58,758 nt of DNA from Candidatus Woesearchaeota archaeon (GCA_964457785.1 CAYWEX010000005.1:1-58758); one strand, 5' to 3'; counted from the first letter of the stretch, positions 618 through 51,472 are shown. Translations and numbers: made by a program. The notes: generated by a model not told the origin, from the sequence alone.

Positions 618-1142
618 GTGTTTAATTTGAATATTGGGATGGAAAAGTTAATACCAGTATTGGCTTTTTTAGGAATATTTGTAGGCATTCTAATTGCAAA
701 ATTCACAAGAGAAGAAATAAGAAACAACAGAAATTACCTGCTAATTTTAAGCAAAATAATTATTGGGATTTTGATATTTACAGTAATTATTTTCAGCAAA
801 AACTTTTCATTATTATTTATTGGTGTTTTATTGGGATTTTTGAGCGCTTATGTAGTATCAGAATTTTTATTTTTAGGACTAGCATTAGGAATAAGTTTAT
901 TTTTGAAGAAAGATATCAGTTTAGCTACCTCTTCACTTGTTTTTATGTATGCTTTGGTTTATGGAAGCTTATTAAGAATAAGCACATTAAATTTTTCTAA
1001 AATCTTAATTCTATTTATCATGTTTTTTCTCCCGTTTAGTGTATTTTTATTAGATGGAGTTTTATTATTGGATTTAGTTATTGGTTTTGTTGCTGGGGGA
1101 TTAAGCAATTATTTAATAGGAAACAAATTTGCTCTTTTTTAG
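618..1142 (+). CDS. multi-pass membrane protein, unknown function
   Basis: 174-aa ORF of consecutive hydrophobic segments; ends 4 bp before dph5; the ATG at 639 is an alternative start. Confidence 0.7.
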   Translation: MFNLNIGMEKLIPVLAFLGIFVGILIAKFTREEIRNNRNYLLILSKIIIGILIFTVIIFSKNFSLLFIGVLLGFLSAYVVSEFLFLGLALGISLFLKKDISLATSSLVFMYALVYGSLLRISTLNFSKILILFIMFFLPFSVFLLDGVLLLDLVIGFVAGGLSNYLIGNKFALF

Positions 1143-1145
1143 AAA

Positions 1146-1868
1146 ATGCTGCATATTATATCATTAGGGTTATTTGACAAGAAAGACATTAGTGTAAAAG
1201 GACTAGAAACCTGCAGGAAATGTGATTTTCTTTATTTAGAAAGGTACACTAACTTTTTTGACAATACTGCCAAGGAATTAGAAGAATTTATAGGAAATAA
1301 AGTTATTGAAATTAAAAGAGAGGATTTAGAGAATAAAAGTTCTGAACTAATTAAAAAGGCAATAGATTCTGAAGTAGGAGTTTTAATTCCTGGAGACTGC
1401 TTTAGTGCAACAACACATTTTTCCTTATTACAGGAAGCTAAAAAAGAAAACATCAAAGTAAATATAATTCATGGATCAAGTATTTTAACTGCTATTGGCG
1501 AGACTGGATTAAGCTTGTATAATTTTGGAAAAACAACCACTATTCCTTTTGAAAACAAGAACTTGAAAAGCCCTATTGAAGTTTTAAATAATAATTTAAA
1601 ATTAGGAATGCATACTTTATTTTTATTAGATGTAAAGGAAAATAGATGGATGAGCATTAATGGCGGGTTAAAATATTTAATTGAGAATAAAATTGATGAA
1701 AATACATTGGTTGTTGGATGCTGCGGATTAGGAAGCGAGAAAAAAGAAATTAAAGCTGGAAAAATAAAAGATTTAATTGATTATGAATTTAAGATTTATC
1801 CACAATGTTTTATTATTCCAGGAAAATTGCATTTTACAGAAGAAGAAGCTTTAGAATTATTATACTAA
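1146..1868 (+). CDS. dph5: diphthine synthase (diphthamide methyltransferase)
   Basis: IISLGL..KDISVKGLE, LERYT, PGDCFSATTH, SLYNFGKTTTIPF, GMHTLFLLD, IIPGKLHFTE motifs. Confidence 0.93.
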   Translation: MLHIISLGLFDKKDISVKGLETCRKCDFLYLERYTNFFDNTAKELEEFIGNKVIEIKREDLENKSSELIKKAIDSEVGVLIPGDCFSATTHFSLLQEAKKENIKVNIIHGSSILTAIGETGLSLYNFGKTTTIPFENKNLKSPIEVLNNNLKLGMHTLFLLDVKENRWMSINGGLKYLIENKIDENTLVVGCCGLGSEKKEIKAGKIKDLIDYEFKIYPQCFIIPGKLHFTEEEALELLY

Positions 1869-2240
1869 GCCACTGTAATCATTTAAGTTATGCCCATTAT
1901 AATCAAAAGAAATTATCTCGCCGTGGTTTATTTCTTTTAATCCATTATATTGTGAAGAATTAACTTCTGCAACTACTTGTTCAATTGCGTAGACATAACG
2001 ATGCCTAATATTTTTGCCTCTTAAAAATGTAAATAAATTAGGATGTTTTTCAGCAATAATCGCCTCTGCTTTTTTTCGTTCATCTCTAGAAACCTTACTA
2101 TCCTTAATAGTTATAAGAACCGGAATTACATCTCCATTTGTTAATGCAGCTATTTTTTCTTCTAATTTTTGAGAAATTCTAGGTACGGTTTGACACCGGG
2201 GCAGTTCTTCAACTGCTGATGAGTCTTGATTTTGTTCCAT
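1860..2240 (-). CDS. hypothetical protein
   Basis: 126-aa ORF on otherwise unoccupied sequence, ordinary composition. Confidence 0.6.
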   Translation of the reverse strand: MEQNQDSSAVEELPRCQTVPRISQKLEEKIAALTNGDVIPVLITIKDSKVSRDERKKAEAIIAEKHPNLFTFLRGKNIRHRYVYAIEQVVAEVNSSQYNGLKEINHGEIISFDYNGHNLNDYSGLV

Positions 2241-2285
2241 TTTTATAATTAGTAAATATTTTTTGTATTTAATTATTTATAAAGC

Positions 2286-2762
2286 TTATTGTTTTGTGAA
2301 CGGAGAAATAATTTGGTCTTCAACAACTTCTGAATTCCCATCATTAATCCTTAAATTTATTACATTCAGATTTCTCAAAACTACTGTGACATTCCACAAG
2401 ATATTCCTATCTCTTGATTCAAGAGAAATAATCATCTTTGAGAAGTTTTCTTCTTTGTATTTTTTAACCAACAAGAAATTAGCTATTGAAACTGCTTCTT
2501 TTTCTTCTAATTTTAGATTTCCCAAGAATAATTCTTCTGGATTCTGATTTTTAGACAACAATATGTTTGTATCTTTCAGAATAACTTCATCATTATCTAC
2601 AAAAAAAGTGTATGTTGATTTTGTTTCAGCTGAGAAATAATTAAATTCCCATAATCTTTTTATCTGAGCATCATTCAGGAAACAACTTACCAACCTGGCT
2701 CTTGATATTATGGCCTTAAATTTCTCTGAATTTCTTATCTTATCAAAGTCTTCTTTTATCAT
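2286..2762 (-). CDS. hypothetical protein
   Basis: 158-aa ORF starting 3 bp after the thrS stop, probably co-transcribed. Confidence 0.7.
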   Translation of the reverse strand: MIKEDFDKIRNSEKFKAIISRARLVSCFLNDAQIKRLWEFNYFSAETKSTYTFFVDNDEVILKDTNILLSKNQNPEELFLGNLKLEEKEAVSIANFLLVKKYKEENFSKMIISLESRDRNILWNVTVVLRNLNVINLRINDGNSEVVEDQIISPFTKQ

Positions 2763-2764
2763 TT

Positions 2765-4948
2765 TTATAGTTTAGAATTAATGCTTCTAGATGAGACTTC
2801 TTCTTTTAATAAGCTTAAGAATTCTTCTGTTTTGACATTAAATTTAACCTTACCATCTCTTGTCCTTATTGCCAAGGTTTTATTTTCTGTTTCTTTGTCT
2901 CCTATTGTAATAATATAGGGAATTTTCTGCATTGTAGCTTCAAGAACTTTCTTCCCCAAAGTTTCCGGCTTGTCATTTAATTCTACCCTGATATTATTTT
3001 CTTTAAATTTGCTTTCAATTTCTTTTGCAAAATTTATTGATCTGTCTGTAACTGTTATAATTTCTGCTTGAACAGGAGACAGCCATAACGGCATCTTACC
3101 TGCAAAATGCTCTAACAAAAAAGCCATGAATCTTTCATGAGTTGATAAAGGTGCCCTGTGAATTACAAAAACTTCATTGTTTTCTTTTCCTTCTTTATCA
3201 TTGTATTTTAAATTGAAGTTTTTCTTTGCTGCAAAATCCAACTGGATTGTTGACATTGTTTCTTCTCTTCCAATTACAGATTTAAATTGTATATCTAATT
3301 TAGGACCATAGAAAGCAGCTTCATCTGGCTTTTCAATAAATTTAACATTTAATTTTTTCAATACATTTCTTAAAACATTTTCTGTAAATTTCCAATTTTC
3401 CGGCTGGTCAATATATTTTGCCTTATTTCTTGGATCATGCAAAGATAATCTAAACCAGAAGTCCTTAAGACCAAAAGTTTCAAAATATTCTTTTGTCATA
3501 GAAACTACATTCTTGAATTCTTCTTCTATCTGGTCTTTAGAACAATAAATGTGTGCATCATTCATTGACAGCATTCTAACTCTTAACAAGCCAGCCAATG
3601 TTCCTGATAATTCATTTCTATAAACTGTACCGTATTCTGCCAATCTTAATGGCAGTTCTTTATAGCTTCTCGCCCTGGAATTAAATATAATATGATGAAG
3701 AGGGCAGTTCATCGGTTTAATATAATATGTACCGTCATCCAAATTCATTTCTGGGTACATGCCATCTTTGTAGTAAGGCAAATGACCGGACTGCAAATAT
3801 AATTCTTTTTTAGCCAAGTGAGGAGTTGAAACTCTTACATAGCCATATTTTTCTTCTGTTTCAATTACGAATTTTTCAACTTCATTTCTAATTAAAGTTC
3901 CTTTTGGCAGCCATATTGGCAATCCTTTTCCAATTAAATCTGAAAATGTGAATAATTCAAGCTGTTTTCCCAATGTTCTGTGATCTCTTTTTTCTGCTTC
4001 TTCCTGTTGTTTTAAATAAATATCCAAATCTTTTTGATTTTCAAAAGCAATACCATAAATTCTCTGCAACTGCTTATTGTATTGAGAACCTTTCCAGTAA
4101 ACGCCTGATGTTAACAATAATTTGAAAACAGAAGTTTTAGGAATTTCTTCCAACGCTTCACCTAATATTACATCTTCATATCCATCCAGCTCATATATTT
4201 TAGTTTTTTTAATATCTTTCAAGATTTCTTTTTTATACAACTTGTCTTTAAATTTTGATTTTGCTTTTTTTAATTTTATTCCTTTTTGAAGAAGTTCGTG
4301 CATCTTTTTTTCTATTCTTTTGATATCATCTGGATTAAATGGATTGGGCTTTTCAAAATCATAATAAAATTTGTCTTCATCCAAGTAATTTAAAGCTGGC
4401 TTAGAATTTGGAAACAATGACAGAACTGCTTTTCCCAACAATAAAGTAAAAGCATTTCTTAGTTTGTCTAATTTATTTAATTCTTTAATCTGAATTTCCA
4501 AGGGCTTGTCTATTTTTTCTACACCTTTTGAGTCTGCCAAAATTTCCCTTGATAATTCTGACAAAGGATGGCCTTTTGTTGATATTTCAAATGTTTTGTA
4601 ATGGCCGAAAGGAGCCCTAGTTACTTTGAAATCTTTTTTTAGTTTAGATTCTGCATCTTTTAACATCTGCAAAGCAAATTTAGGAGAAGATAATTTAGAG
4701 CTTAAATGAGCATAAGGATAAATAACTATATTTTTTTCCTTAACTTGGTCTGAAATTAACTTAATTTCTTTTACCAAATTATCAAGAATAATTTTTGGAT
4801 TTTTTTCATCTTCTGATTCTACTGCTGTAAAGATTACCAGACATTCATTTACTTTAACTTCCTTGTTAGAAACTTCCTCAGCCTCTTTTATTGCAACTTT
4901 TACGGGCTTGAATTTCAAGTGGTCAGCGTGTATAGCCAGTATTTTCAT
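2765..4948 (-). CDS. thrS: threonine-tRNA ligase, chimeric (archaeal editing domain + degenerate bacterial N2 domain + bacterial-type core)
   Basis: N-terminal YPYAHLS/APFG.YK/KGHPLSELSR; core KPMNCP, YRNELSG..GLLRVR, DAHI, FYGPKLD, IHRA; C-terminal anticodon-binding domain. Confidence 0.96.
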   Translation of the reverse strand: MKILAIHADHLKFKPVKVAIKEAEEVSNKEVKVNECLVIFTAVESEDEKNPKIILDNLVKEIKLISDQVKEKNIVIYPYAHLSSKLSSPKFALQMLKDAESKLKKDFKVTRAPFGHYKTFEISTKGHPLSELSREILADSKGVEKIDKPLEIQIKELNKLDKLRNAFTLLLGKAVLSLFPNSKPALNYLDEDKFYYDFEKPNPFNPDDIKRIEKKMHELLQKGIKLKKAKSKFKDKLYKKEILKDIKKTKIYELDGYEDVILGEALEEIPKTSVFKLLLTSGVYWKGSQYNKQLQRIYGIAFENQKDLDIYLKQQEEAEKRDHRTLGKQLELFTFSDLIGKGLPIWLPKGTLIRNEVEKFVIETEEKYGYVRVSTPHLAKKELYLQSGHLPYYKDGMYPEMNLDDGTYYIKPMNCPLHHIIFNSRARSYKELPLRLAEYGTVYRNELSGTLAGLLRVRMLSMNDAHIYCSKDQIEEEFKNVVSMTKEYFETFGLKDFWFRLSLHDPRNKAKYIDQPENWKFTENVLRNVLKKLNVKFIEKPDEAAFYGPKLDIQFKSVIGREETMSTIQLDFAAKKNFNLKYNDKEGKENNEVFVIHRAPLSTHERFMAFLLEHFAGKMPLWLSPVQAEIITVTDRSINFAKEIESKFKENNIRVELNDKPETLGKKVLEATMQKIPYIITIGDKETENKTLAIRTRDGKVKFNVKTEEFLSLLKEEVSSRSINSKL

Positions 4949-4986
4949 AAGTTATTAAAGCAAAAAGAAAGTATATAAAGATTTTT

Positions 4987-5589
4987 ATGGATAGAAATAA
5001 CATGAGAAAAATCATACTGGCTTCTAACTCGCCAAGAAGAAAGCAATTATTAGCGCAATTAATTGGAGATAATTTTGAAATTAAAACTGGAAATTATGTT
5101 GAAGACAATAACCTGCCTAAAAAGCCTGAAATTCTAGTGAGGTATCATGCCTTACAAAAGGGAAGGGATGTTGCGAAAAATTTAAGAGAAGGGATAATAA
5201 TTTCAGCAGATACATTAGTTTTTTATAAAAAAAAGGCTTTGGGAAAACCACATACAGAAGAAAAAGCAAAAGAAATGCTTAAATTACTTAGTGGGAAAGA
5301 AGTTGAAATATATACAGGATTAGCAGTTATTGATGTGAAAAATAAAAAAGAGTTACAAGACTACGGTTTTGTTAAAATCAAATTAAAAAAATTATCTGAA
5401 AAAGAAATAGAAGAATACATAAAAACTGGAGAGCCTTTGGATAGAGCTGGCGCTTTTGCTGTTCAGGAAAAAGGAGTTGTTTTTATAGAAAAAATAGATG
5501 GAGATTATCCAACTGCTGTTGGCTTACCTTTATTTAAATTAAGTAAATTACTAGATAAATTGGGAGTTTCTATTTTTGATTACAGATAA
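4987..5589 (+). CDS. maf: Maf family nucleoside triphosphate pyrophosphatase
   Basis: IILASNSPRRKQLL, ISADTLV, LGKP, GEPLDRAGA, VGLPL. Confidence 0.95.
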   Translation: MDRNNMRKIILASNSPRRKQLLAQLIGDNFEIKTGNYVEDNNLPKKPEILVRYHALQKGRDVAKNLREGIIISADTLVFYKKKALGKPHTEEKAKEMLKLLSGKEVEIYTGLAVIDVKNKKELQDYGFVKIKLKKLSEKEIEEYIKTGEPLDRAGAFAVQEKGVVFIEKIDGDYPTAVGLPLFKLSKLLDKLGVSIFDYR

Positions 5590-5662
5590 AGTTTATTATT
5601 TAGGTGACTACAACTATATTATAATAATAAGATATTTAAAGAAAAGGGTATGGATTTAGACT

Positions 5663-7504
5663 ATGAAAAGAGTGTTTTTGGCTTTAAGTTTTCTATTAAT
5701 TATTCTGCCTAGTTCTTTTGCTTTAATTGAAATTAATGAAATTACCCCAAAAGTCTATAATTTAGGTGATAAAATCAAAATAGCTGCGTCAATTACAAGA
5801 GAAACTAGTTTTGACGGCTTATTAAAAATAAATATGGCTTGTAAGGAGGAAACTCCTGTCATATCTCGGGTTTTAGATTTAAGTGCTACTGAAAAATATA
5901 ATTTTCTGGAAGAAATCACTATTCCAAATATAGGAACTGGAGAATGCAAGCTGAGAGTCTTTTTAGATGAAAATGGAAATTTAATAGAAGAAAAGAACAG
6001 TGATATTTTTCAAGTTACAAAAGAATTAAATGGAAATTTTGTTCTAGTTAACAGCAGAGTTCAATTAGGAAGTGATGTTGACATTAAGGGAGATATTTCA
6101 AAAGTAAATGGGAAAAAAATTGATGGTATTGCTACAACTCACTTTAAAAAAGACAAAAATGTTTTATTTGTTGATACTGAAGATGTGAAAGAAGGAAGTT
6201 TTACATTTAATATTCCTTCTAACTATACTAATGCTGGAAGTTATTCAGTTGATTTTAATGTGAGAGACGCTAGTGGAAATGAAAAATTATTTACTGAAGC
6301 TATTGTCTTCGATATTACTAATTTACTTAATGTAGACTTAAAATTAAATAAAAATCAGGTAAAACCAGGAGAACTCTTTGAAGTTACTGGTGTTGTTACA
6401 GATACTTATGGAAATAGAGTGAATCCTGGAAGTTTTACTGTGAAATTCAATGACAAAGAACTAAAAGGAAAAATCCTGCTGGGGGATATTTATTTAGAAA
6501 TAGCTGCTGACAATAATTTAAAATCTGGATTTCATAATATTTTAGTAAATGTTATGGATGATTTTGGAAACAAAGGATCAGGAACATTAAATGTTGAAAT
6601 TTTGTCTAAAGCAGAGAGAGCTGAATTAAAAATTGATAAAGATTCTTACAAACCAGGAGAAAATGTAAAAGTAACTGCTTTTGTTTATGACCAAGGAAGA
6701 GATCTATTTGACAAAGATATTGAAATTGAAATAAGGGATTCTTCTGGTGTAAAAAGAGCAGATGAAATCATAAAAAGAGAATTTACATTTGCCTTGCCCT
6801 TAATTTCCAAGCCTGGAGAATGGGCGATTAAGGCAACTTCCGGCGCTTTAAAAGATGAGAAGAAATTTTATGTTACAGAAGTAAAAGAAATTAGCTATAA
6901 AATTGAGGGACAAATGCTGATAGTTACAAATATCGGCAATGTTGCTTATGATGATATTTTAGATTTGGATTTAGATGGAGTTAGTGAAACTGCTTCTTTT
7001 AATGAAAAAATTTATTTAGAACCTGGAGAAAGCGAAAGCATTGATTTGGGAAAAGATGTTAATACTGGAATTTATAAGGCTACTATTAATAATAAGTTAT
7101 TTGATAATGTAAGAATTGAAGGAAGGAAATTTGGAGATTATGGGAAAAACCTTAATTTAATATTTGTTTTTATTGTTTTATTAGTTCTTGGAATTTTACT
7201 TTACATGAAAAAAGGAATTAAATTACCAAGTTTAGGAAAATTCTTCAAAAAAGAGAGAAAAGAATTCAGCTATATTGATGATGTAAAAAAAGTTTTGCAT
7301 GAAAAAATGGAGCAAAAAGAAAGATTTGTGAAAAAAGAAATGCAGCATCTTAAAACTAAAGAAAATGTTTTTAAAGAATATATAACCATAAAGCCAAGAG
7401 ATGAAAAATTAAATGATTACAGACAAAAGAGTTCTTATTTGAAAAGAAGAGAGAAAGAAAAGGGTGGAGAATTTAAAGAAGGCATGTTCAATATGTTTAA
7501 ATAA
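5663..7504 (+). CDS. secreted, membrane-anchored beta-rich (Ig/MG2-like) protein
   Basis: N-terminal signal peptide, DKDSYKPGENVKVTAFVYD MG2-like segment, TM helix near aa 500, charged tail. Confidence 0.7.
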   Translation: MKRVFLALSFLLIILPSSFALIEINEITPKVYNLGDKIKIAASITRETSFDGLLKINMACKEETPVISRVLDLSATEKYNFLEEITIPNIGTGECKLRVFLDENGNLIEEKNSDIFQVTKELNGNFVLVNSRVQLGSDVDIKGDISKVNGKKIDGIATTHFKKDKNVLFVDTEDVKEGSFTFNIPSNYTNAGSYSVDFNVRDASGNEKLFTEAIVFDITNLLNVDLKLNKNQVKPGELFEVTGVVTDTYGNRVNPGSFTVKFNDKELKGKILLGDIYLEIAADNNLKSGFHNILVNVMDDFGNKGSGTLNVEILSKAERAELKIDKDSYKPGENVKVTAFVYDQGRDLFDKDIEIEIRDSSGVKRADEIIKREFTFALPLISKPGEWAIKATSGALKDEKKFYVTEVKEISYKIEGQMLIVTNIGNVAYDDILDLDLDGVSETASFNEKIYLEPGESESIDLGKDVNTGIYKATINNKLFDNVRIEGRKFGDYGKNLNLIFVFIVLLVLGILLYMKKGIKLPSLGKFFKKERKEFSYIDDVKKVLHEKMEQKERFVKKEMQHLKTKENVFKEYITIKPRDEKLNDYRQKSSYLKRREKEKGGEFKEGMFNMFK

Positions 7505-7545
7505 ACTTATAATATAAAAGAGTTCTCGAAAAATAACTTATGTTT

Positions 7546-8457
7546 TTAATCCAATAATTTTAATTTATCTGCCAACTTGCAGGCCTGACAAATCTCCTGA
7601 GAACAGGGTTCAGAACAGATTTTACATGCTTTTATTTTTTTAAAATCAAGATGCTTTCTTAAAATCGGCTGAATTTCCATAAATGAATTTATTATAGAGT
7701 GTTTTGTACCTGGATATTTTGCTTCTATTTCATTTAACCAGTCCCTTAAGTTGCATCTATATGATAAAGCAGCATTTGGACATTCTATATATTCATCTTT
7801 TAAATTATTCAAGAAAGCAAATGCAGCTATTTCCCTTTCTGTCAAGAAATATAATGGTTTAATTCTTCTAATAAATCTTTTATCTTCTATTACTCCCGTA
7901 ATTGGGCCTAATCTTGCTGAGGCAGCTATATTCCTTCTAAATTGGTTCATTAGAATAGTCTGGGCTTCATCATCCAAATTATGACCTGTTGCCAGCTTAG
8001 TAATTCCTAATTGTTTTGCTTTTGTATTTAATAAATATCTTCTAAATACACCACAAATTGAACAAGGCTTTTCATTAGTTATTTTAAGCATTTTATCCAA
8101 AGTTTGGCCAAATTCTTTTTTATATGAAAAAGTATGCAAATCTATTTTATTTTCTTTGCAGAAGTTTTTTAAGAAAGTTAAATTTCTATATCCTTCAATA
8201 CCTTCATCTATTGCCAGGGCCATTACTTTTATATTTTGGGGCTTAAGTATTTTATTTAGAATATACAAAGTTGACATTGAATCCTTGCCTCCGCTTGCAG
8301 CGACCCCAATTACATCTTTCTTGTCAATTAACTTATAGATCCTTATTGTCTTTCTTACTTTCTTTTCAAAATACCTGTTGAAACATTTTCTGCATTGATA
8401 GATATTACTATTTGGGAGCTTTATTACTGGATTTTTTTCACATATTTTACATGACAT
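7546..8457 (-). CDS. ncsA: tRNA 2-thiolation protein NcsA/TtuA (TIGR00269-like)
   Basis: N- and C-terminal Cys zinc fingers, SGGKDS PP-loop, CSICGVFRR, TGHNLDDEAQ. Confidence 0.9.
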   Translation of the reverse strand: MSCKICEKNPVIKLPNSNIYQCRKCFNRYFEKKVRKTIRIYKLIDKKDVIGVAASGGKDSMSTLYILNKILKPQNIKVMALAIDEGIEGYRNLTFLKNFCKENKIDLHTFSYKKEFGQTLDKMLKITNEKPCSICGVFRRYLLNTKAKQLGITKLATGHNLDDEAQTILMNQFRRNIAASARLGPITGVIEDKRFIRRIKPLYFLTEREIAAFAFLNNLKDEYIECPNAALSYRCNLRDWLNEIEAKYPGTKHSIINSFMEIQPILRKHLDFKKIKACKICSEPCSQEICQACKLADKLKLLD

Positions 8458-9869: not shown

Positions 9870-9878
9870 GATTTATAT
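9870..9878. repeat. target-site duplication of element 1, left copy (GATTTATAT; right copy 11170-11178)
   Basis: identical 9-mer directly outside both inverted repeats; 10 bp if the adjacent T is counted. Confidence 0.9.
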
Positions 9879-9966
9879 GGCTTTGCACATAAATTCAAAT
9901 TTAAGAAATCTTTAAAATAAATCCGTAAACTTTTCGGTGTTTATTACTTTATAATTAAACAACAAG

Positions 9967-10030
9967 TTATATATAAATTTCACTGGACAAATTCACTGGA
10001 CATTTCGTGGACCTGCCTATCGCTTATAAA
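9967..10030 (+). promoter_or_regulatory. two TATA-like boxes flanking 13-bp-period direct repeats upstream of tnpB
   Basis: TTATATATAAA 9967-9977; TTCACTGGACA at 9979 and 9992 plus a degenerate third; CTTATAAA 10023-10030; same layout at 24238-24301. Confidence 0.5.
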
Positions 10031-10056
10031 TAAAATTGTCTTTTTCTTATTTTAAT

Positions 10057-11136
10057 ATGAAAAAAGAGATAAAATTAACCAAAGTAATCAAAGCATCTGT
10101 AATTAATCTAACTAATAGAAAGAGAGATTTATTGGATAATGATTATAATAATTATCAGTGGTGGATGATATTTGGTGTTGATAATGGATTATTAAGTTGT
10201 TTTAAAGCAGCAAAAGGATGGAAACAGGAAAAAATCAAATATAAAAATTACTCGTTACCATTATGGTCTTCTTTGATTAAAGACTGGTTTAGAAAAAGAA
10301 AAACTAAATTAACTGAAGACTGGATTAAGATTCCCTGCAGCAAAAGAAAAGGGCAGGGTTTATGGTTGCCATTAAAATTTCATCAAAAACTACCTGAAAA
10401 ATACAAATTAAAAGATTCTTTTCTAGTTAAAAAGAATGACAAATACTATATTTATTTCACAATAGAATTAGATTGTCTTAAGTTGTATAAACCTAAAGAA
10501 GTAATTGGAATAGACTTAGGATTAAAAAATCCAGTTACTTTAGTAAATATCAATAATAAACAAACTAAATTCTTAGGAAGAGAATTAAAGAAAGTTAAAG
10601 GCAAATATTATTATTTAAGAAAGAAGTTAGGACAAAGCAAGAATTTAAAACAAATCAAGAAAATTAGAAATAAAGAGAAGAGAAAGATTAATTCTATATT
10701 GCATACCTTATCAAAGGCCATTATACTAGAAGCTTTTAACAATAAATCAGCTATTGTAATTGGAAAATTAAAAGATTTAAAGAAAAATAAGGGAAGGAAG
10801 TTTAACAGAAAGTTATCTACTTTTTCATATTATCAGTTTACCAAGTTTTTAGAATATAAATCTCAACAATTAGGTATTCCATTCATAAAAGTAAATGAAG
10901 CATATACAAGCAAGACCTGTAGTGTTTGTAACAGTCCAGGTACTAGAATAAAGAATTGGTTTAAGTGTAATACATGTGATTATGGAGATAATGCAGATAG
11001 AAATGCTGCAATAAATATAGGAAAACGGGGTTCAAGCTATATGTTTGGATCAGGGGCAAATGCTTTTGCCCAGAAGCCTATCCAGAATAGGCAAGCACAA
11101 CCATTTAATAATTTGAAAAACAAACAAATTTTGTAA
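10057..11136 (+). CDS. tnpB: TnpB-family RNA-guided endonuclease, compact, rearranged RuvC-II
   Basis: VIGIDLG (RuvC-I), IVIGKL, VNEAYTSKTC, CxxC..CxxC, NADRNAAINI (RuvC-III); start set to ATG 10057 by homology to the second copy. Confidence 0.93.
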   Translation: MKKEIKLTKVIKASVINLTNRKRDLLDNDYNNYQWWMIFGVDNGLLSCFKAAKGWKQEKIKYKNYSLPLWSSLIKDWFRKRKTKLTEDWIKIPCSKRKGQGLWLPLKFHQKLPEKYKLKDSFLVKKNDKYYIYFTIELDCLKLYKPKEVIGIDLGLKNPVTLVNINNKQTKFLGRELKKVKGKYYYLRKKLGQSKNLKQIKKIRNKEKRKINSILHTLSKAIILEAFNNKSAIVIGKLKDLKKNKGRKFNRKLSTFSYYQFTKFLEYKSQQLGIPFIKVNEAYTSKTCSVCNSPGTRIKNWFKCNTCDYGDNADRNAAINIGKRGSSYMFGSGANAFAQKPIQNRQAQPFNNLKNKQIL

Positions 11137-11189
11137 ATTTGTTATAATTGTTAATTTATGTGCAAAGCTGATTTATATAGAAGAAGTAG
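11042..11189 (+). ncRNA. predicted omega-RNA scaffold plus flank-derived guide, element 1
   Basis: hairpins 11054-11071, 11076-11092, 11123-11143; 60 nt (11042-11101) identical between the two copies; boundaries inferred. Confidence 0.55.
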
Positions 11190-23419: not shown

Positions 23420-23923
23420 TTATGGTGTGATTAAACCAAGATTAGACTTCACATTATTTATTAAATCATTTGTATCAACATAGATATCGGCAGCATATTT
23501 TGTCCATAATCTTTTCCTGAAAATATATTTATGATAAAAATTTCTCAATGCTTTTCCTATCTGGCCATATTTTTCAAAATGATTTCTATAATCTGCTTCC
23601 ATTGACCCATTTATTCTTACCTGGATTTCTCCCTGGTATAAATTTTCCTTTGGAGAAACTTTGGTTGTCCTTAATGCCCAAATTTCTACATTAATTTCAT
23701 ATTTTATATAATCATTAACTTCCTTAGTAGCAATAAAATCGATTTTGTGATCTTTTCCAGTTGGTCTTACTAGCTCTACATGTATTTTTTCATTAAAAAA
23801 ATAGCCTTTTGACTTAAACCAGTTTACTATTCCCCTATAAAACTTATCAAAATCATAAAGACCAATATAACTTACCTTTATTCTTGCTGATTTTGTACCA
23901 ACAATAGGAACTTGAAAACCCAT
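23420..23923 (-). CDS. hypothetical protein
   Basis: 167-aa ORF with TATA-like sequence upstream. Confidence 0.75.
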   Translation of the reverse strand: MGFQVPIVGTKSARIKVSYIGLYDFDKFYRGIVNWFKSKGYFFNEKIHVELVRPTGKDHKIDFIATKEVNDYIKYEINVEIWALRTTKVSPKENLYQGEIQVRINGSMEADYRNHFEKYGQIGKALRNFYHKYIFRKRLWTKYAADIYVDTNDLINNVKSNLGLITP

Positions 23924-23962: not shown

Positions 23963-24097
23963 TAAGATTTTTATTAAAAAGCTTAAGCAAAAATAAGAAC
24001 CCAGGTTCTTATCAACTCCTCATAAAAAGAACTAACCCTTTAAACATTTTAAAAAAAGCTTTACCAAAAATAAGAACCAAGGTTCTTATCAACTCCT
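23963..24097. repeat. modular palindromic intergenic repeat, tandem double copy
   Basis: two rounds of AAAAAGCTT..CAAAAA-TAAGAACC-NN-GGTTCTTATCAACTCCT. Confidence 0.85.
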
Positions 24098-24159
24098 AAT
24101 GAAGTAAAGTAACATAAAAAAAGTAAGCTAGAAAATTATATAAATGTCGTTTAATAACT

Positions 24160-25435
24160 GGCTTTGAACATTAAATTCAAAATTAAAATAAATCCGGAAA
24201 CTTTCCGGAGTTTATTACTTTATAATTAAACAACAGGTTATATATAAATTTCACTGGACAAATTCACTGGACATTTCAGGGACCTGCCTAGTGCTTATAA
24301 ACAAATTAGTCTTTTTCTGATTTTAATGAAAAAAGAGATAAAATTAACTAAAGTTATCAAAGCTTCTGTAATAGATTTAACTAAAAATAAAAAAGAATTA
24401 TTGGATAAGGATTATAATAATTATCAATGGTGGATGATATTTGGTATTGATAATGGATTATTATCTTGTTTTAAAGCAGCGAAAGGATGGAAACAAGAAA
24501 AGATAAAATATAAAGAATATAGTTTACCATTAGAATCAAGGTTTATTAAAGACTGGTTCAGGAAAAGAGATACTAAACTAACTGAAGACTGGATTAAGAT
24601 TCCTTGCAGCAAAAGAAAAGGACAGGGATTATGGCTTCCATTAAAATATCATCAGGAATTGCCTGACAAATATACTTTAAAAGATTCCTTTTTAGTAAGA
24701 AAGAATGATAAATATTATATTTATTTCACAGTAGGGGTAGATTGTCCTAAATTGTATAAACCAAAAGAAGTAATTGGAATAGACTTAGGACTTAAAAACC
24801 CAGTTACTTTGGTTAATATTAATAATAAACAAACTAAGTTCTTGGGAAAAGAATTGAAGAAAGTTAAAGGAAAATATTATTACTTAAGAAAGAAGTTAGG
24901 ACAAAATAAAAATCTTAAACAAATAAAAAAGATAAGAAACAAGGAAAAAAGAAAGATTAATTCTATATTGCATACTTTATCCAAAGCAATTGTATTAGAA
25001 GCTTATGATAATAAATCAGCTATTGTTATAGGAAAATTAAAAGACTTAAAGAAAAATAAAGGAAGAAAGTTTAACAGAAAGTTATCTAATTTCTCCCATT
25101 ATCAATTTACTAAATTCCTAGAATATAAATCTCAACAATTAGGTATTCCATTCATAAAAGTAAATGAAGCATATACTAGCAAGACCTGTAATGTTTGTAA
25201 CAGTCCAGGTATAAGAATAAAGAATTGGTTTAAGTGTAATACTTGTAATTATGAAGACAATGCAGACAGAAATGCTGCAATAAATATAGGAAAACGGGGT
25301 TCAAGCCATGTGTTTGGATCAGGGGCAAATGCTTTTGCCCAGAAGCCTATCCAGAATAGGCAAGCACAACATTTAATAATTGAAAAATAAACATATTTTG
25401 TAAATTGTTTAATATATTAATTTATGTGCAAAGCT
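24160..25435 (+). mobile_element. non-autonomous TIR element 2 carrying tnpB
   Basis: left end GGCTTTGAACATTAAATTC, right end AATTTATGTGCAAAGCT, TSD TTAATAACT at 24151-24159 and 25436-25444; interior homologous to element 1. Confidence 0.9.
24326..25390 (+). CDS. tnpB: TnpB-family RNA-guided endonuclease, compact, rearranged RuvC-II (copy 2)
   Basis: D153, G236, E281, D314, zinc finger C288/C291/C304/C307; about 34 aa differences from copy 1 by manual alignment. Confidence 0.93.
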   Translation: MKKEIKLTKVIKASVIDLTKNKKELLDKDYNNYQWWMIFGIDNGLLSCFKAAKGWKQEKIKYKEYSLPLESRFIKDWFRKRDTKLTEDWIKIPCSKRKGQGLWLPLKYHQELPDKYTLKDSFLVRKNDKYYIYFTVGVDCPKLYKPKEVIGIDLGLKNPVTLVNINNKQTKFLGKELKKVKGKYYYLRKKLGQNKNLKQIKKIRNKEKRKINSILHTLSKAIVLEAYDNKSAIVIGKLKDLKKNKGRKFNRKLSNFSHYQFTKFLEYKSQQLGIPFIKVNEAYTSKTCNVCNSPGIRIKNWFKCNTCNYEDNADRNAAINIGKRGSSHVFGSGANAFAQKPIQNRQAQHLIIEK

Positions 25436-25455
25436 TTAATAACTTTATTTAATCA
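25323..25455 (+). ncRNA. predicted omega-RNA scaffold plus guide, element 2
   Basis: hairpins 25323-25340, 25345-25361 and TAAACA/TGTTTA 25388-25411; boundaries inferred. Confidence 0.55.
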
Positions 25456-25469
25456 AAAAGGGGAAATTT

Positions 25470-27635
25470 ATGAGAATTAGTTTAAAAAAGAGCTTATTTA
25501 AAAAAATATTATTTCTTTTTATATTCATATTAATAATAAATTCTGTTTCTGCAGCTACTATTATTGATTTTTTTAGCGAGAAATTTTATCAATTTTACAA
25601 TAAGAATGATGGGAATTTAATTACTGGAAATGTAGTTGTAAATGGTGCCTTAACTATCCAGAAAAATGGAATTGGAAATATAAACTCAAATGTTCTTGGA
25701 ATGACTTGCGATAATGCTAGATGTATAGGAGATTTCAATCAAGATGTATTTGTTACATTAACTGTTACTTCAGATCAAACATCTACGTTTACGGGATGGA
25801 GCACTTCTTCAATTACATGCGCTCCAGGTAATTCAGATTGTTCCTGCAGCGGAACGCAAAGTCCATGTTTTATCCATTTCATATCAACCCCAATAACAAT
25901 ATCTGCTAATTTTCAAAATTCAAATGCTGGTGGTGGGTCTGGAGGAACAAATAATAATCTTAAGTTAGAGATAAAAAGAGGAACAAGTACACCACCAACA
26001 GAAATAGCTGAAACAAAAGAGTGTACAATTAGTAATACTAACTTAGAATGTATAAGCAACAATAATTGGGAAGATTTAGTTAATACAATTCATTCTGGTC
26101 GTGAGGTGAAGGCTTCTTTTATGCAGAGTGCTGGTGATTCATTTATAATTGAAAAATTATTTATTGGAAGTAATGAAATTAAAAATTGTGTTCAACAAAC
26201 TTTTTGTGCAATATCACCTTCTCTTAATAATCAAGGTTTAATAAAAGCCAAATTAGTATCAAGAAGCCCTGGTAGTGGAAGTACATCGACAATCCCAAAT
26301 CTTAAATTAGAAATAAAAAAGGGACAAAATTTTCCATTAACAGTTGTTGAAACAAAAGATTGTACAATTAGTAATAGTAATTTAGAATGTGTGAGTAATG
26401 GCAATTGGGAAACTATAAGTTCTGAGCAATTGCCTAATTATGAAGTGAAGGCTTCTTTTATGCAGAGTGCTGGTGATTCATTTATAATTGAAAAATTATT
26501 TATTGGAAGTAATGAAATTAAAAATTGTGTTCAACAAACTTTTTGTGCTGAAACACCACTTCTTCCCCCAACAAATACTGGAAAAGTAAAGGTTAAATTA
26601 TTACCTAGAAGTCCTAGTGGTTCTGGTGGTGGTGGGGCAACTCCTTGTAATGTCCCTGCTGATTATAATTGTGGTGCTTGTGGGATTAATGGAGTTAATA
26701 CATGTACAAAAAAACAAGGAATAACTTGTTTAGGCAGTGATCAAATAACGTGTGCAACAGGAACTGGAGGAGGAAATACTGGTGGAACGGGAATAGGTAC
26801 TGGAGGTACTGGATCTGGGACTGTTGGATCTGGAGACTGTATAAATTCATTACCTTCAGATAAACAAAATATTTTAGAAGGAATTATCAAATGCTGGGAA
26901 AAATATACTACTACCTGTTTAAATGTAATAGATCCTGTTACAAATAAAAAATGCAGTGATAAAAAATTTGGAGAGAAAAATATATGTAAAAGAGATTGCA
27001 GAGTTAGTATCAGAGATTGTTTAACAAAATGCAGAGAAGATTTTATAGAAAAATCAAGACTGGCAGGATCTTCTGGAACTGGATCTTCAGCTGGTGGTGG
27101 ATCAACAAGCGGATCTGGATCAGGTACTGGCGGTTCTGGAACAGGAACTGGTGTGACTGGGACTGGCGGCGGAAATACAGGAGCTGGAACTAGTACTGTT
27201 GAATTAATGGAAGCTGAAGATGCAACAAAAGTAAGGATAACAGAAAATAATCAAAATGACGGTTTTAGAATAGAACACTATACTTTTGAGGGTGCAACTT
27301 CTTTAAAAAATATTAATGAAAATGATATGTTTTCAATTTCTTATAATGTTCCACAAAATGGAAATTATGAATTAAAAGTAAGAACTTGGAGAGGCCTTTC
27401 TGGAACTCCCGAACTTATAGTAAAAGTAAATAATAATGAAGTTGGCAGAATAGGAATTGCACAAACACAAAATGGTGGATTGGGATTAAATTTTGCTGAA
27501 TATAAATTAAACAATATTGCTTTAAATCAAGGTGTTCAAAATATAGAATTAAAAGTAAATAGTGCGGGTTCATCAATACAGGGTGGATTTGGACTTTTTT
27601 TAATTGACTGGATTAAAATTACAAAGATTTCATAA
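25470..27635 (+). CDS. large secreted surface protein with Gly-rich linkers, duplicated Cys domain and C-terminal CBM6/35-like module
   Basis: signal peptide, B-repeat-like TLTVTSD..FTGW, 113-aa tandem repeat, MEAEDA..GNYELKVR..IDWIKI. Confidence 0.8.
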   Translation: MRISLKKSLFKKILFLFIFILIINSVSAATIIDFFSEKFYQFYNKNDGNLITGNVVVNGALTIQKNGIGNINSNVLGMTCDNARCIGDFNQDVFVTLTVTSDQTSTFTGWSTSSITCAPGNSDCSCSGTQSPCFIHFISTPITISANFQNSNAGGGSGGTNNNLKLEIKRGTSTPPTEIAETKECTISNTNLECISNNNWEDLVNTIHSGREVKASFMQSAGDSFIIEKLFIGSNEIKNCVQQTFCAISPSLNNQGLIKAKLVSRSPGSGSTSTIPNLKLEIKKGQNFPLTVVETKDCTISNSNLECVSNGNWETISSEQLPNYEVKASFMQSAGDSFIIEKLFIGSNEIKNCVQQTFCAETPLLPPTNTGKVKVKLLPRSPSGSGGGGATPCNVPADYNCGACGINGVNTCTKKQGITCLGSDQITCATGTGGGNTGGTGIGTGGTGSGTVGSGDCINSLPSDKQNILEGIIKCWEKYTTTCLNVIDPVTNKKCSDKKFGEKNICKRDCRVSIRDCLTKCREDFIEKSRLAGSSGTGSSAGGGSTSGSGSGTGGSGTGTGVTGTGGGNTGAGTSTVELMEAEDATKVRITENNQNDGFRIEHYTFEGATSLKNINENDMFSISYNVPQNGNYELKVRTWRGLSGTPELIVKVNNNEVGRIGIAQTQNGGLGLNFAEYKLNNIALNQGVQNIELKVNSAGSSIQGGFGLFLIDWIKITKIS
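26106..26548. repeat. 104-bp identical intragenic direct repeat
   Basis: 26106-26209 equals 26445-26548 (339-bp period). Confidence 0.9.
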
Positions 27636-51329: not shown

Positions 51330-51394
51330 TTACTTAGTTAATAGAAATTTGTATAAAATTATTTATTTTAACTTTAAAGTAGTTTGGAGCTATT

Positions 51395-51472
51395 TTCGGA
51401 AGATTTCCGGATTAGCCGGAAAGTTTACGGATTTACCGGAAGATTTACGGAATTGAATTTATGTGCAAAGCC
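51395..51472 (-). mobile_element. solo left end of the tnpB TIR element family
   Basis: 51453-51472 is the exact reverse complement of 9879-9898; preceded by three tandem 20-nt CCGGAA..TTT(A/C)CGGA units. Confidence 0.8.

Follow-up and report, generated by a model that had tools for sequence, protein, structure and literature searches.

The closest described relatives of the gene presented here are TnpB-family nucleases in which the RuvC active site is rearranged. TnpB2 proteins carry Gly or Pro at the RuvC-II position, and a conserved Glu lying about 45 aa from it serves as the alternative (PMC10530073). In the RuvC-II-rearranged (RIIr) branches a Gly stands in place of the Glu, whose loss is compensated by a Glu on beta-5, not beta-4 (PMC10691335). 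The relocated residue matters for catalysis: cleavage by ApmFanzor is abolished by the E467A substitution (PMC10530073), and in the cryo-EM structure of ApmFz2 the relocated Glu coordinates the metal, within a D324/E467/D501 triad (PMC11832414). Among archaeal members, TvTnpB of Thermoplasma volcanium cuts with an NTGAC TAM and shows no collateral activity (PMC10530073). As regards carriers, six DDE-associated TnpB branches with inverted ends have been described, as have solo TnpBs that are mobilised in trans (PMC10691335). Cut-and-paste excision already leaves a break, and the benefit of TnpB to such elements is not established (PMC13565253).

The relocated-Glu site is already established, having been published in 2023-2024 with mutagenesis and cryo-EM, and to this body of work the present gene adds a DPANN member. 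More unusual than the relocated Glu is the carrier, an IS5-type element found at promoter edges. The gene lies in a window of 58,758 nucleotides, by which we mean the whole stretch of DNA that was analysed, and its host is a Woesearchaeota-type DPANN archaeon with an 802 kb assembly of 19 contigs that is 86% complete.

The tnpB open reading frame (24326..25390, + strand) encodes a protein of 354 aa, which scores 176.9 bits against the NCBIfam model guided_TnpB (NF040570, cut-off 100) and 78.6 bits against the Pfam model Cas12f1-like_TNB (PF07282, cut-off 26.3). RuvC-I is represented by D153 in EVIGIDLGL and RuvC-III by D314 in DNADRNAA, which contains an NADRN motif; between RuvC-II and RuvC-III stands a zinc finger made up of CNVC at 288 and CNTC at 304 (C288/C291/C304/C307). 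The canonical RuvC-II Glu position is occupied by Gly236, in AIVIGKLKDL, and a Glu, E281 in KVNEAYTSK, follows at a distance of exactly 45 residues. The original prediction had described D153, G236, E281 and D314 in both window copies, with the Glu 45 residues on, and the residues were found as it stated. Judged from its sequence, the product is a TnpB of the TnpB2, or RIIr, class. The earlier label of a Fanzor2/TnpB2-type site is right as to the TnpB2 class, and the literature behind it had been reported accurately (PMC10530073), but the arrangement is not specific to Fanzor2, being common to all Fanzors as well as to TnpB2/RIIr. Nor is the protein "ultra-compact", as had been proposed: 354 aa is an ordinary length for a family in which 300-450 aa is typical (PMC10691335) and in which the relatives in the rearranged clade have about 330-400 aa.

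Several features are shared with TvTnpB and the branches RIIr-3/-5/-6/-8 (TnpB2/pro-Fanzor), namely the Gly at RuvC-II, an invariant Glu about 45 residues on and ahead of the zinc finger, the NADxN motif of RuvC-III, an archaeal host and an omegaRNA over the 3' end of the gene. TvTnpB differs in that it is carried by IS605 together with a Y1 TnpA, whereas the tnpB described here lies between terminal inverted repeats (TIRs) with a 9-bp TSD, in a genome without Y1 TnpA. ApmFz2 (PDB 9b0l) and Fanzor1 have the same relocated Glu, D324/E467/D501 corresponding to D153/E281/D314, as well as the TnpB core fold, and in Fanzors, as here, the guide RNA extends into a TIR of a DDE-type transposon. However, Fanzors are eukaryotic or giant-virus proteins of about 520 aa or more, with an NLS and an N-terminal extension, while the archaeal protein has a minimal REC and only 152 residues ahead of RuvC-I. 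A Fanzor identity was rejected on the grounds of the archaeal 0.8-Mb genome and of the missing N-terminal extension. With ISDra2 TnpB (PDB 8h1j/8exa) the product shares the domain order WED-REC-WED-RuvC-ZnF-RuvC, the design of a single-RuvC RNA-guided nuclease and an omegaRNA at the right end. ISDra2 TnpB, in contrast, has a Glu, the canonical E278, and the Pro of VxPxxTS where G236 and E281 are found here, and it is carried by IS200/IS605, without TIR or TSD. It is also longer (408 aa), and the position of its RuvC-I Asp (D191 versus D153) makes its N-terminal lobe about 38 aa longer; the difference that had been proposed was about 40 aa.

The copy under study sits in a 1.28-kb element (24160..25435, + strand) that is bounded by TIRs and TSDs. 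Its left-end TIR (24160..24178, + strand) reads GGCTTTGAACATTAAATTC and, compared with the consensus GGCTTTGCACATAAATTC, has one base substituted and one base added; its right-end TIR (25417..25435, + strand) reads TTAATTTATGTGCAAAGCT. The 9-bp TSD TTAATAACT is present at 24151..24159 on the left and at 25436..25444 on the right, where it would supply the opening 9 nt of the presumed guide. The window holds a second full element (9879..11169, + strand) with perfect TIRs and the TSD GATTTATAT at 9870-9878 and 11170-11178. Its tnpB (10057..11136, + strand) encodes 359 aa from the equivalent ATG, and its omegaRNA starts at 11022. A third copy of the gene is found on the - strand of contig C3 (67583-68644). 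In an alignment of the three copies with their flanks the element boundaries are sharp, with GGCTTTGCACATAAATT on the left and AATTTATGTGCAAAGCT on the right, which yields a TIR of 17 bp, and a direct repeat of 9 bp without mismatch flanks each copy (TTAATAACT, GATTTATAT and CTTCTTAAA). The only cargo of the 1.28-kb element is tnpB together with the overlapping 145-nt candidate omegaRNA.

The same ends and a 9-bp TSD also delimit a 317-bp MITE (C3:10388-10704) and a 6.9-kb transposon (C6:35812-42742), the latter with GGCTTTGCACA ends. The larger element encodes a BsaWI-like restriction gene, an N4/N6 methylase, a DUF2779 protein and an IS5-family DDE transposase. This enzyme, encoded at C6:41690-42724 and about 25% identical to bacterial IS5 members, is the sole IS5-family DDE transposase in the genome (147.7 bits against the NCBIfam model transpos_IS5_2, cut-off 140). 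As it alone in the genome has matching ends, it presumably mobilises the tnpB element in trans. By its termini, the tnpB carrier is a non-autonomous IS5-family element (17-bp TIR GGCTTTGCACA..., 9-bp TSD). We take it to be IS903-like within IS5, its ends presumably resembling those of IS903.

No match to Y1 TnpA (PF01797) was found in the genome, and members of the rearranged clade at 34-41% identity adjoin Y1 TnpA genes; taken together, these two observations indicate that the DPANN subfamily appears to have switched carrier. Assignment to IS200/IS605 or to an IS1341-type solo TnpB was rejected, given that TIR and TSD are present and that Y1 TnpA is lacking. Homologues from Woesearchaeota and Nanoarchaeia, at 62-77% identity, have retained the same TIR and 9-bp TSD, and the TIR 15-mer is present in 79/240 genomes of the order, compared with 2 control matches. 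In same-genus genomes the orthologous sites of two copies, including the one at 9879..11169 of the window, are empty and the target is single.

Comparable carriers are those of the branches DDE-1 to DDE-6 (ISL2, IS1031 and IS630), in which TnpB likewise lies inside DDE inverted ends with its 3' end less than 250 bp from the end. The solo TnpBs that are mobilised in trans also have, as here, ends common to a transposase-bearing element (PMC10691335; PMC13565253). The present carrier differs from the DDE branches in its 9-bp TSD, in being so far confined to Woesearchaeota-type DPANN genomes, and in its oriented insertion at promoter edges; in the available portions of the two reports, oriented BRE/TATA-edge insertion is not described for DDE-1 to DDE-6 (PMC10691335; PMC13565253).

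For the analysis of target sites 136 unique element ends were collected. Among the G-starting ends, 56/88 have TTTATAAA precisely at -23..-16 when up to 2 mismatches are allowed, and in 47 of the 56 it is accompanied by TTNY at -13..-10; among the A-starting ends the corresponding counts are 5/35 with TTTATAAA and 3/35 with TTNY too. The TATA of ordinary promoters of this genome starts 29-31 nt before the ATG, with AAA-nn ahead of it and no TTTY after it. From this AAA-nn-TATA layout it follows that the insertion motif is the reverse complement of BRE-TATA. In 22/55 sites a divergent gene has its start codon 21-24 nt past the TATA box, and a tRNA gene is found in others. The reversed BRE-TATA motif, with divergent starts and tRNA genes beyond it, places the landing site at the upstream promoter edge: elements with these ends insert one-way, with the left end leading, at the upstream border of host BRE/TATA core promoters.

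At the copy under study a host TATA-like box (TTATATAAA) and a 6-nt spacer (24136..24150, - strand) are located directly left of the TSD, and, read on that strand, form the BRE/TATA core of a promoter directed away from the element. The spacer, TGTCGT, matches nnTTTY only weakly. Two other interpretations of the TATA-like motif, a promoter reading into tnpB and a long TAM, were rejected: the far side of the flanks is without an A-rich BRE, the motif equals the reverse complement of the BRE(AAA)-nn-TATA consensus of the genome, and divergent host genes have their start codons, or tRNA genes are found, 21-24 nt beyond it. The conservation of insertion sites would be compatible with TTTY as a TAM; elements without tnpB show the same conservation, and the preference may consequently be that of the transposase alone.

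The right end of the element contains a structured candidate omegaRNA that overlaps the 3' end of tnpB and terminates at the right boundary of the element. The putative scaffold (25291..25435, + strand) comprises 145 nt, covering the last ~100 nt of the ORF and the 45 nt up to the element end. Three hairpins are predicted within the 3' end of the ORF (25296-25320, 25322-25340 and 25345-25361), and a predicted long-range helix joins GCACA (25364-25368) to UGUGC in the right TIR. The scaffold stops at the element boundary, and the right TIR forms the 3' end of the candidate omegaRNA. The predicted fold has an MFE of -39.5 kcal/mol (z = -3.69). Across ten elements from different genomes, 12/27 pairs show a compensatory change, as against 4.7+/-1.4 compensated pairs in shuffled controls, none of which (0/500) reach 12, and at most 4 in slid-partner controls. 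A scan of 24000-25600 with Rfam 15 gave no meaningful match and no omegaRNA family. The coding sequence carries a corresponding signal, as in codons 319-345 synonymous change is almost absent (dS 0-0.06, versus ~0.7 upstream), which argues that the nucleotide sequence itself is under constraint.

The tnpB copies of this genome number three, two of them in the window, and have the same Gly and Glu at a pairwise protein identity of about 90%. The original prediction, which had reported two intact copies with about 10% divergence and had taken them as a sign of selection, was right about the intact ORFs and the degree of identity, but a third copy has to be added to its count. With regard to selection it was borne out: dN/dS among the three copies is 0.09 at a dS of ~0.7 (Nei-Gojobori, codons 1-318), which confirms, at the level of codon comparison, that purifying selection acts on the tnpB protein. 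The high dS also implies that none of the copies is a recent intragenomic duplicate.

These values bear on the question whether the copy at 24160-25435 could be a decaying, immobile relic with an ORF that is intact by chance. The substitution and the extra base in its left TIR, the age of the copies (dS ~0.7) and the presence of a single transposase gene in the 86% complete assembly would fit such a relic, and the two left-TIR changes, along with the poor nnTTTY match of the flank, suggest that this particular copy may no longer be mobile. However, its TSD is perfect, its right end, omegaRNA and ORF are intact, and the low dN/dS is accompanied by the absence of any stop or frameshift from all three copies. 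Moreover, the nucleotides of the omegaRNA segment have been kept across copies whose synonymous sites elsewhere are close to saturated. We consider a relic of this kind to be quite unlikely.

The reading of the active site depends on whether Gly236 truly corresponds to the canonical Glu. A search of 5.8 billion proteins recovered 663 homologues, 111 of them full-length, with identities as low as 31%. These 111 sequences show no variation at D153, G236, E281 or the four Cys, and D314 is kept in 110/111. The original prediction had paired the Gly at RuvC-II with a compensating downstream Glu; in agreement with this, the G/E combination is invariant among the 111 homologues and exclusive of E/P. 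A second search, which covered 1.84 billion cluster representatives, yielded 78 matches at E<=1e-30, and 98 full-length cluster representatives were aligned with MAFFT. Here, D-G-E-D occurs in 56/98 and D-E-[P/A/S]-D in 42/98, and a mixed state in 0/98. The rearranged representatives read hhhhG[DKN]L ... V[NS]ExxTS, as compared with hhhhE[DKN]L ... V[DN](P/A/S)xxTS in the canonical ones. Since only two coupled states exist in the 98-row alignment, Gly236 stands in the column of the canonical Glu and E281 in the Pro column of VxPxxTS. A pairwise HMMER register that placed E324 of AsCas12f against K239, a slip of 3 residues, was set aside, as the 98-sequence alignment supports G236.

A tree was built without the two trait columns; the named references TvTnpB and the Fanzors are not among its rows. 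It places the query not in a canonical-RuvC clade but in the rearranged one (SH-aLRT 96), 55/56 rows of which are rearranged. Mapped on this tree, the state label requires 3 changes, compared with ~32 when labels are shuffled. The row P0172, also within the rearranged clade, looks like a coupled reversion to E/P.

The AF2 model, generated from the 111-sequence alignment, has a pLDDT of 89.5 and a pTM of 0.81. In this model D153 lies in the strand 148-154 and G236 near the end of the strand 231-237. The strand 276-280 (beta-5) is followed at once by E281, at its C-terminal end, and D314 starts the helix 313-331; the final ~20 residues are disordered. Foldseek retrieved, with a probability of 1.00, AsCas12f (1e-15), ISFba1 TnpB, ApmFanzor2 (9b0l, 4.5e-11) and ISDra2 TnpB, and the modelled product accordingly has the TnpB/Cas12f fold. 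As far as the secondary structure of the model goes, the location of E281, where beta-5 ends, is in line with the geometry published for RIIr (PMC10691335).

We also examined the alternative of an active enzyme whose third carboxylate is supplied not by E281 but by another acidic residue, for instance E207 or D311, or which works with a two-carboxylate site. Both of these residues are retained in 90% or more of the homologues. Yet only E281 is invariant and also switches with position 236, being replaced by Pro, Ala or Ser when 236 is Glu, and its location, at the C-terminal end of beta-5 and beside beta-4 in the RNase H sheet, is that described for RIIr TnpBs. The spacing to RuvC-III points in the same direction, as E281 and D314 are separated by 33 residues and E467 and D501 of ApmFz2, where this Glu coordinates Mg2+, by 34 (PMC11832414). 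A different third carboxylate, or a two-carboxylate site, is very unlikely. Highly improbable is a nuclease-dead, TldR-like RNA-guided DNA binder, in which loss of the RuvC-II Glu would be inactivating and E281 structural: the Gly in place of the canonical catalytic Glu and the adjacent promoters, where a repressor could act, would suit it, but the zinc finger is intact, D153 and E281 are invariant, D314 is kept in 110/111 homologues, G/E and E/P occur as strictly coupled states, the same arrangement is active in TvTnpB and Fanzors with the alternative Glu essential there (PMC10530073, PMC11832414), and, where TldRs show carboxylate loss or C-terminal truncation at a fixed, non-mobile locus, this gene is multicopy, in three mobile copies of an element with variable flanks.

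We therefore favour, with high though not full confidence, a functional-type RNA-guided endonuclease of the TnpB2/RIIr class, with a carboxylate supplied by E281, on a non-autonomous IS5-family element at a promoter edge. In such an enzyme the carboxylate of the Glu at the end of beta-4, where Gly236 now stands, would be provided by Glu281 at the end of beta-5, which takes the place of Pro in V-x-P-x-x-T-S just ahead of the zinc finger, and D153 and D314 would complete the triad. The evidence for a D153/E281/D314 triad comes from alignment, phylogeny, predicted fold and published relatives, which jointly make this assignment probable.

Transcription across the right end would append the TSD and flank as a guide. 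Given the one orientation of insertion, each right-end transcript would carry the TSD and flank in this role. The empty site would display T-T-T-Y, the complement of the BRE, directly 5' of the target, which is where a TAM would be expected, and the likely role of TnpB would be to cut empty sites, either for homing or for retention. In a wider scenario, which we put forward tentatively and with more doubt than conviction, a TnpB2 lineage with IS605-borne distant relatives was captured in Woesearchaeota-type DPANN by a promoter-edge IS5/IS903-like transposon. Its right TIR would serve as the 3' helix of the omegaRNA, its guide would be the TSD and flank, and TTTY would be the TAM, so that empty promoter-edge sites are cleaved and homing or retention results. 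If capture and homing hold true, the system would parallel, in prokaryotes, the biology of Fanzors in DDE transposons, with promoter edges as a safe-haven target.

Several uses can be envisaged. A TnpB on a promoter-edge DDE element offers a tractable case for what an RNA-guided nuclease brings to a transposon whose excision produces a double-strand break anyway. The ~660 homologues provide a natural contrast of G/E and E/P for studying how a catalytic carboxylate moved, and a small TnpB2 of 354 aa with a well-delimited 145-nt candidate omegaRNA could be of practical use.

The element also brings a promoter of its own for tnpB (24293..24325, + strand), in which the TATA box TTATAAA starts 31 nt before the ATG, which is the leaderless spacing usual for this genome. 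Just 5' of this promoter stand two tandem copies of TTCACTGGACA (24250..24273, + strand), and the element of contig C3 has three.

The genome's sole IS5-family DDE transposase is carried by a 6.9-kb transposon on another contig of the same assembly (C6:35812-42742; positions 1013-7943 of locus L004), which ends in the GGCTTTGCACA TIR seen in the tnpB elements and is flanked by a 9-bp TSD, AAAACAACA. Besides the transposase, its cargo comprises a restriction endonuclease resembling BsaWI, an N4/N6 DNA methylase, a protein with a DUF2779 domain and two unknown ORFs. This transposon is a mobile restriction-modification system, and it is probably the autonomous partner of the non-autonomous tnpB elements.

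The TIR family of the tnpB elements also bounds a 317-bp MITE on contig C3 (10388-10704), which has its own 9-bp TSD (AATTTTAAT) and likewise adjoins a TTTATAAA-gcttac motif. Within the window, a solo terminus resembling a left end lies on the minus strand at 51390-51472; it begins GGCTTTGCACATAAATTCAATTCCG, and the promoter-edge motif, a TATA-like box plus spacer, is found outside it as ATATATAAA-ccttgc-TATAACAAA. Its likeness to the left end of the tnpB element is limited to the first ~60-85 nt, beyond which the sequence consists of CCGnAAAnnTTCCGG hairpins in repeated copies, followed by a small ORF, and a search for a right end matching this terminus found none.

Two other genomes each have a pair of contigs (L134/L133 in G145; L084/L060) in which the flank of the left end on one matches the flank of the right end on its partner, and the 9-bp TSD is identical within each pair. 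These matches indicate that the assemblies break within the repeated elements, and element copy numbers in MAGs are therefore probably undercounted.

Tandem TTCACTGGACA repeats (window 24250-24273 and 9979-10002) lie directly upstream of the element's own tnpB TATA box, in two copies in the window elements and three in the C3 element, and could represent a regulator operator or a transposase-binding site. A hairpin repeat, AAAAATAAGAACCnAGGTTCTTATCAACTCCT, occurs twice at window 23985-24110, in the interval that separates the gene at 23420..23923 (minus strand) from the host TATA box on the element's left side. At the right end, a TATA-like box rich in A/T is present at window 25400-25435 and 11135-11169, about 24-33 nt inside the element; it reads TTATAATT, or in relatives TATTAAAA; if it acts as a promoter, transcription would be predicted to start approximately at the element boundary and to proceed outward into the flank.

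Among the TnpB cluster representatives, P0172 is a canonical D-E-P-D protein nested in the rearranged D-G-E-D clade, where the tree places it as sister to P0199 (SH-aLRT 94). It looks like a coupled reversal at both positions, and would constitute an independent case of the G/E to E/P switch.
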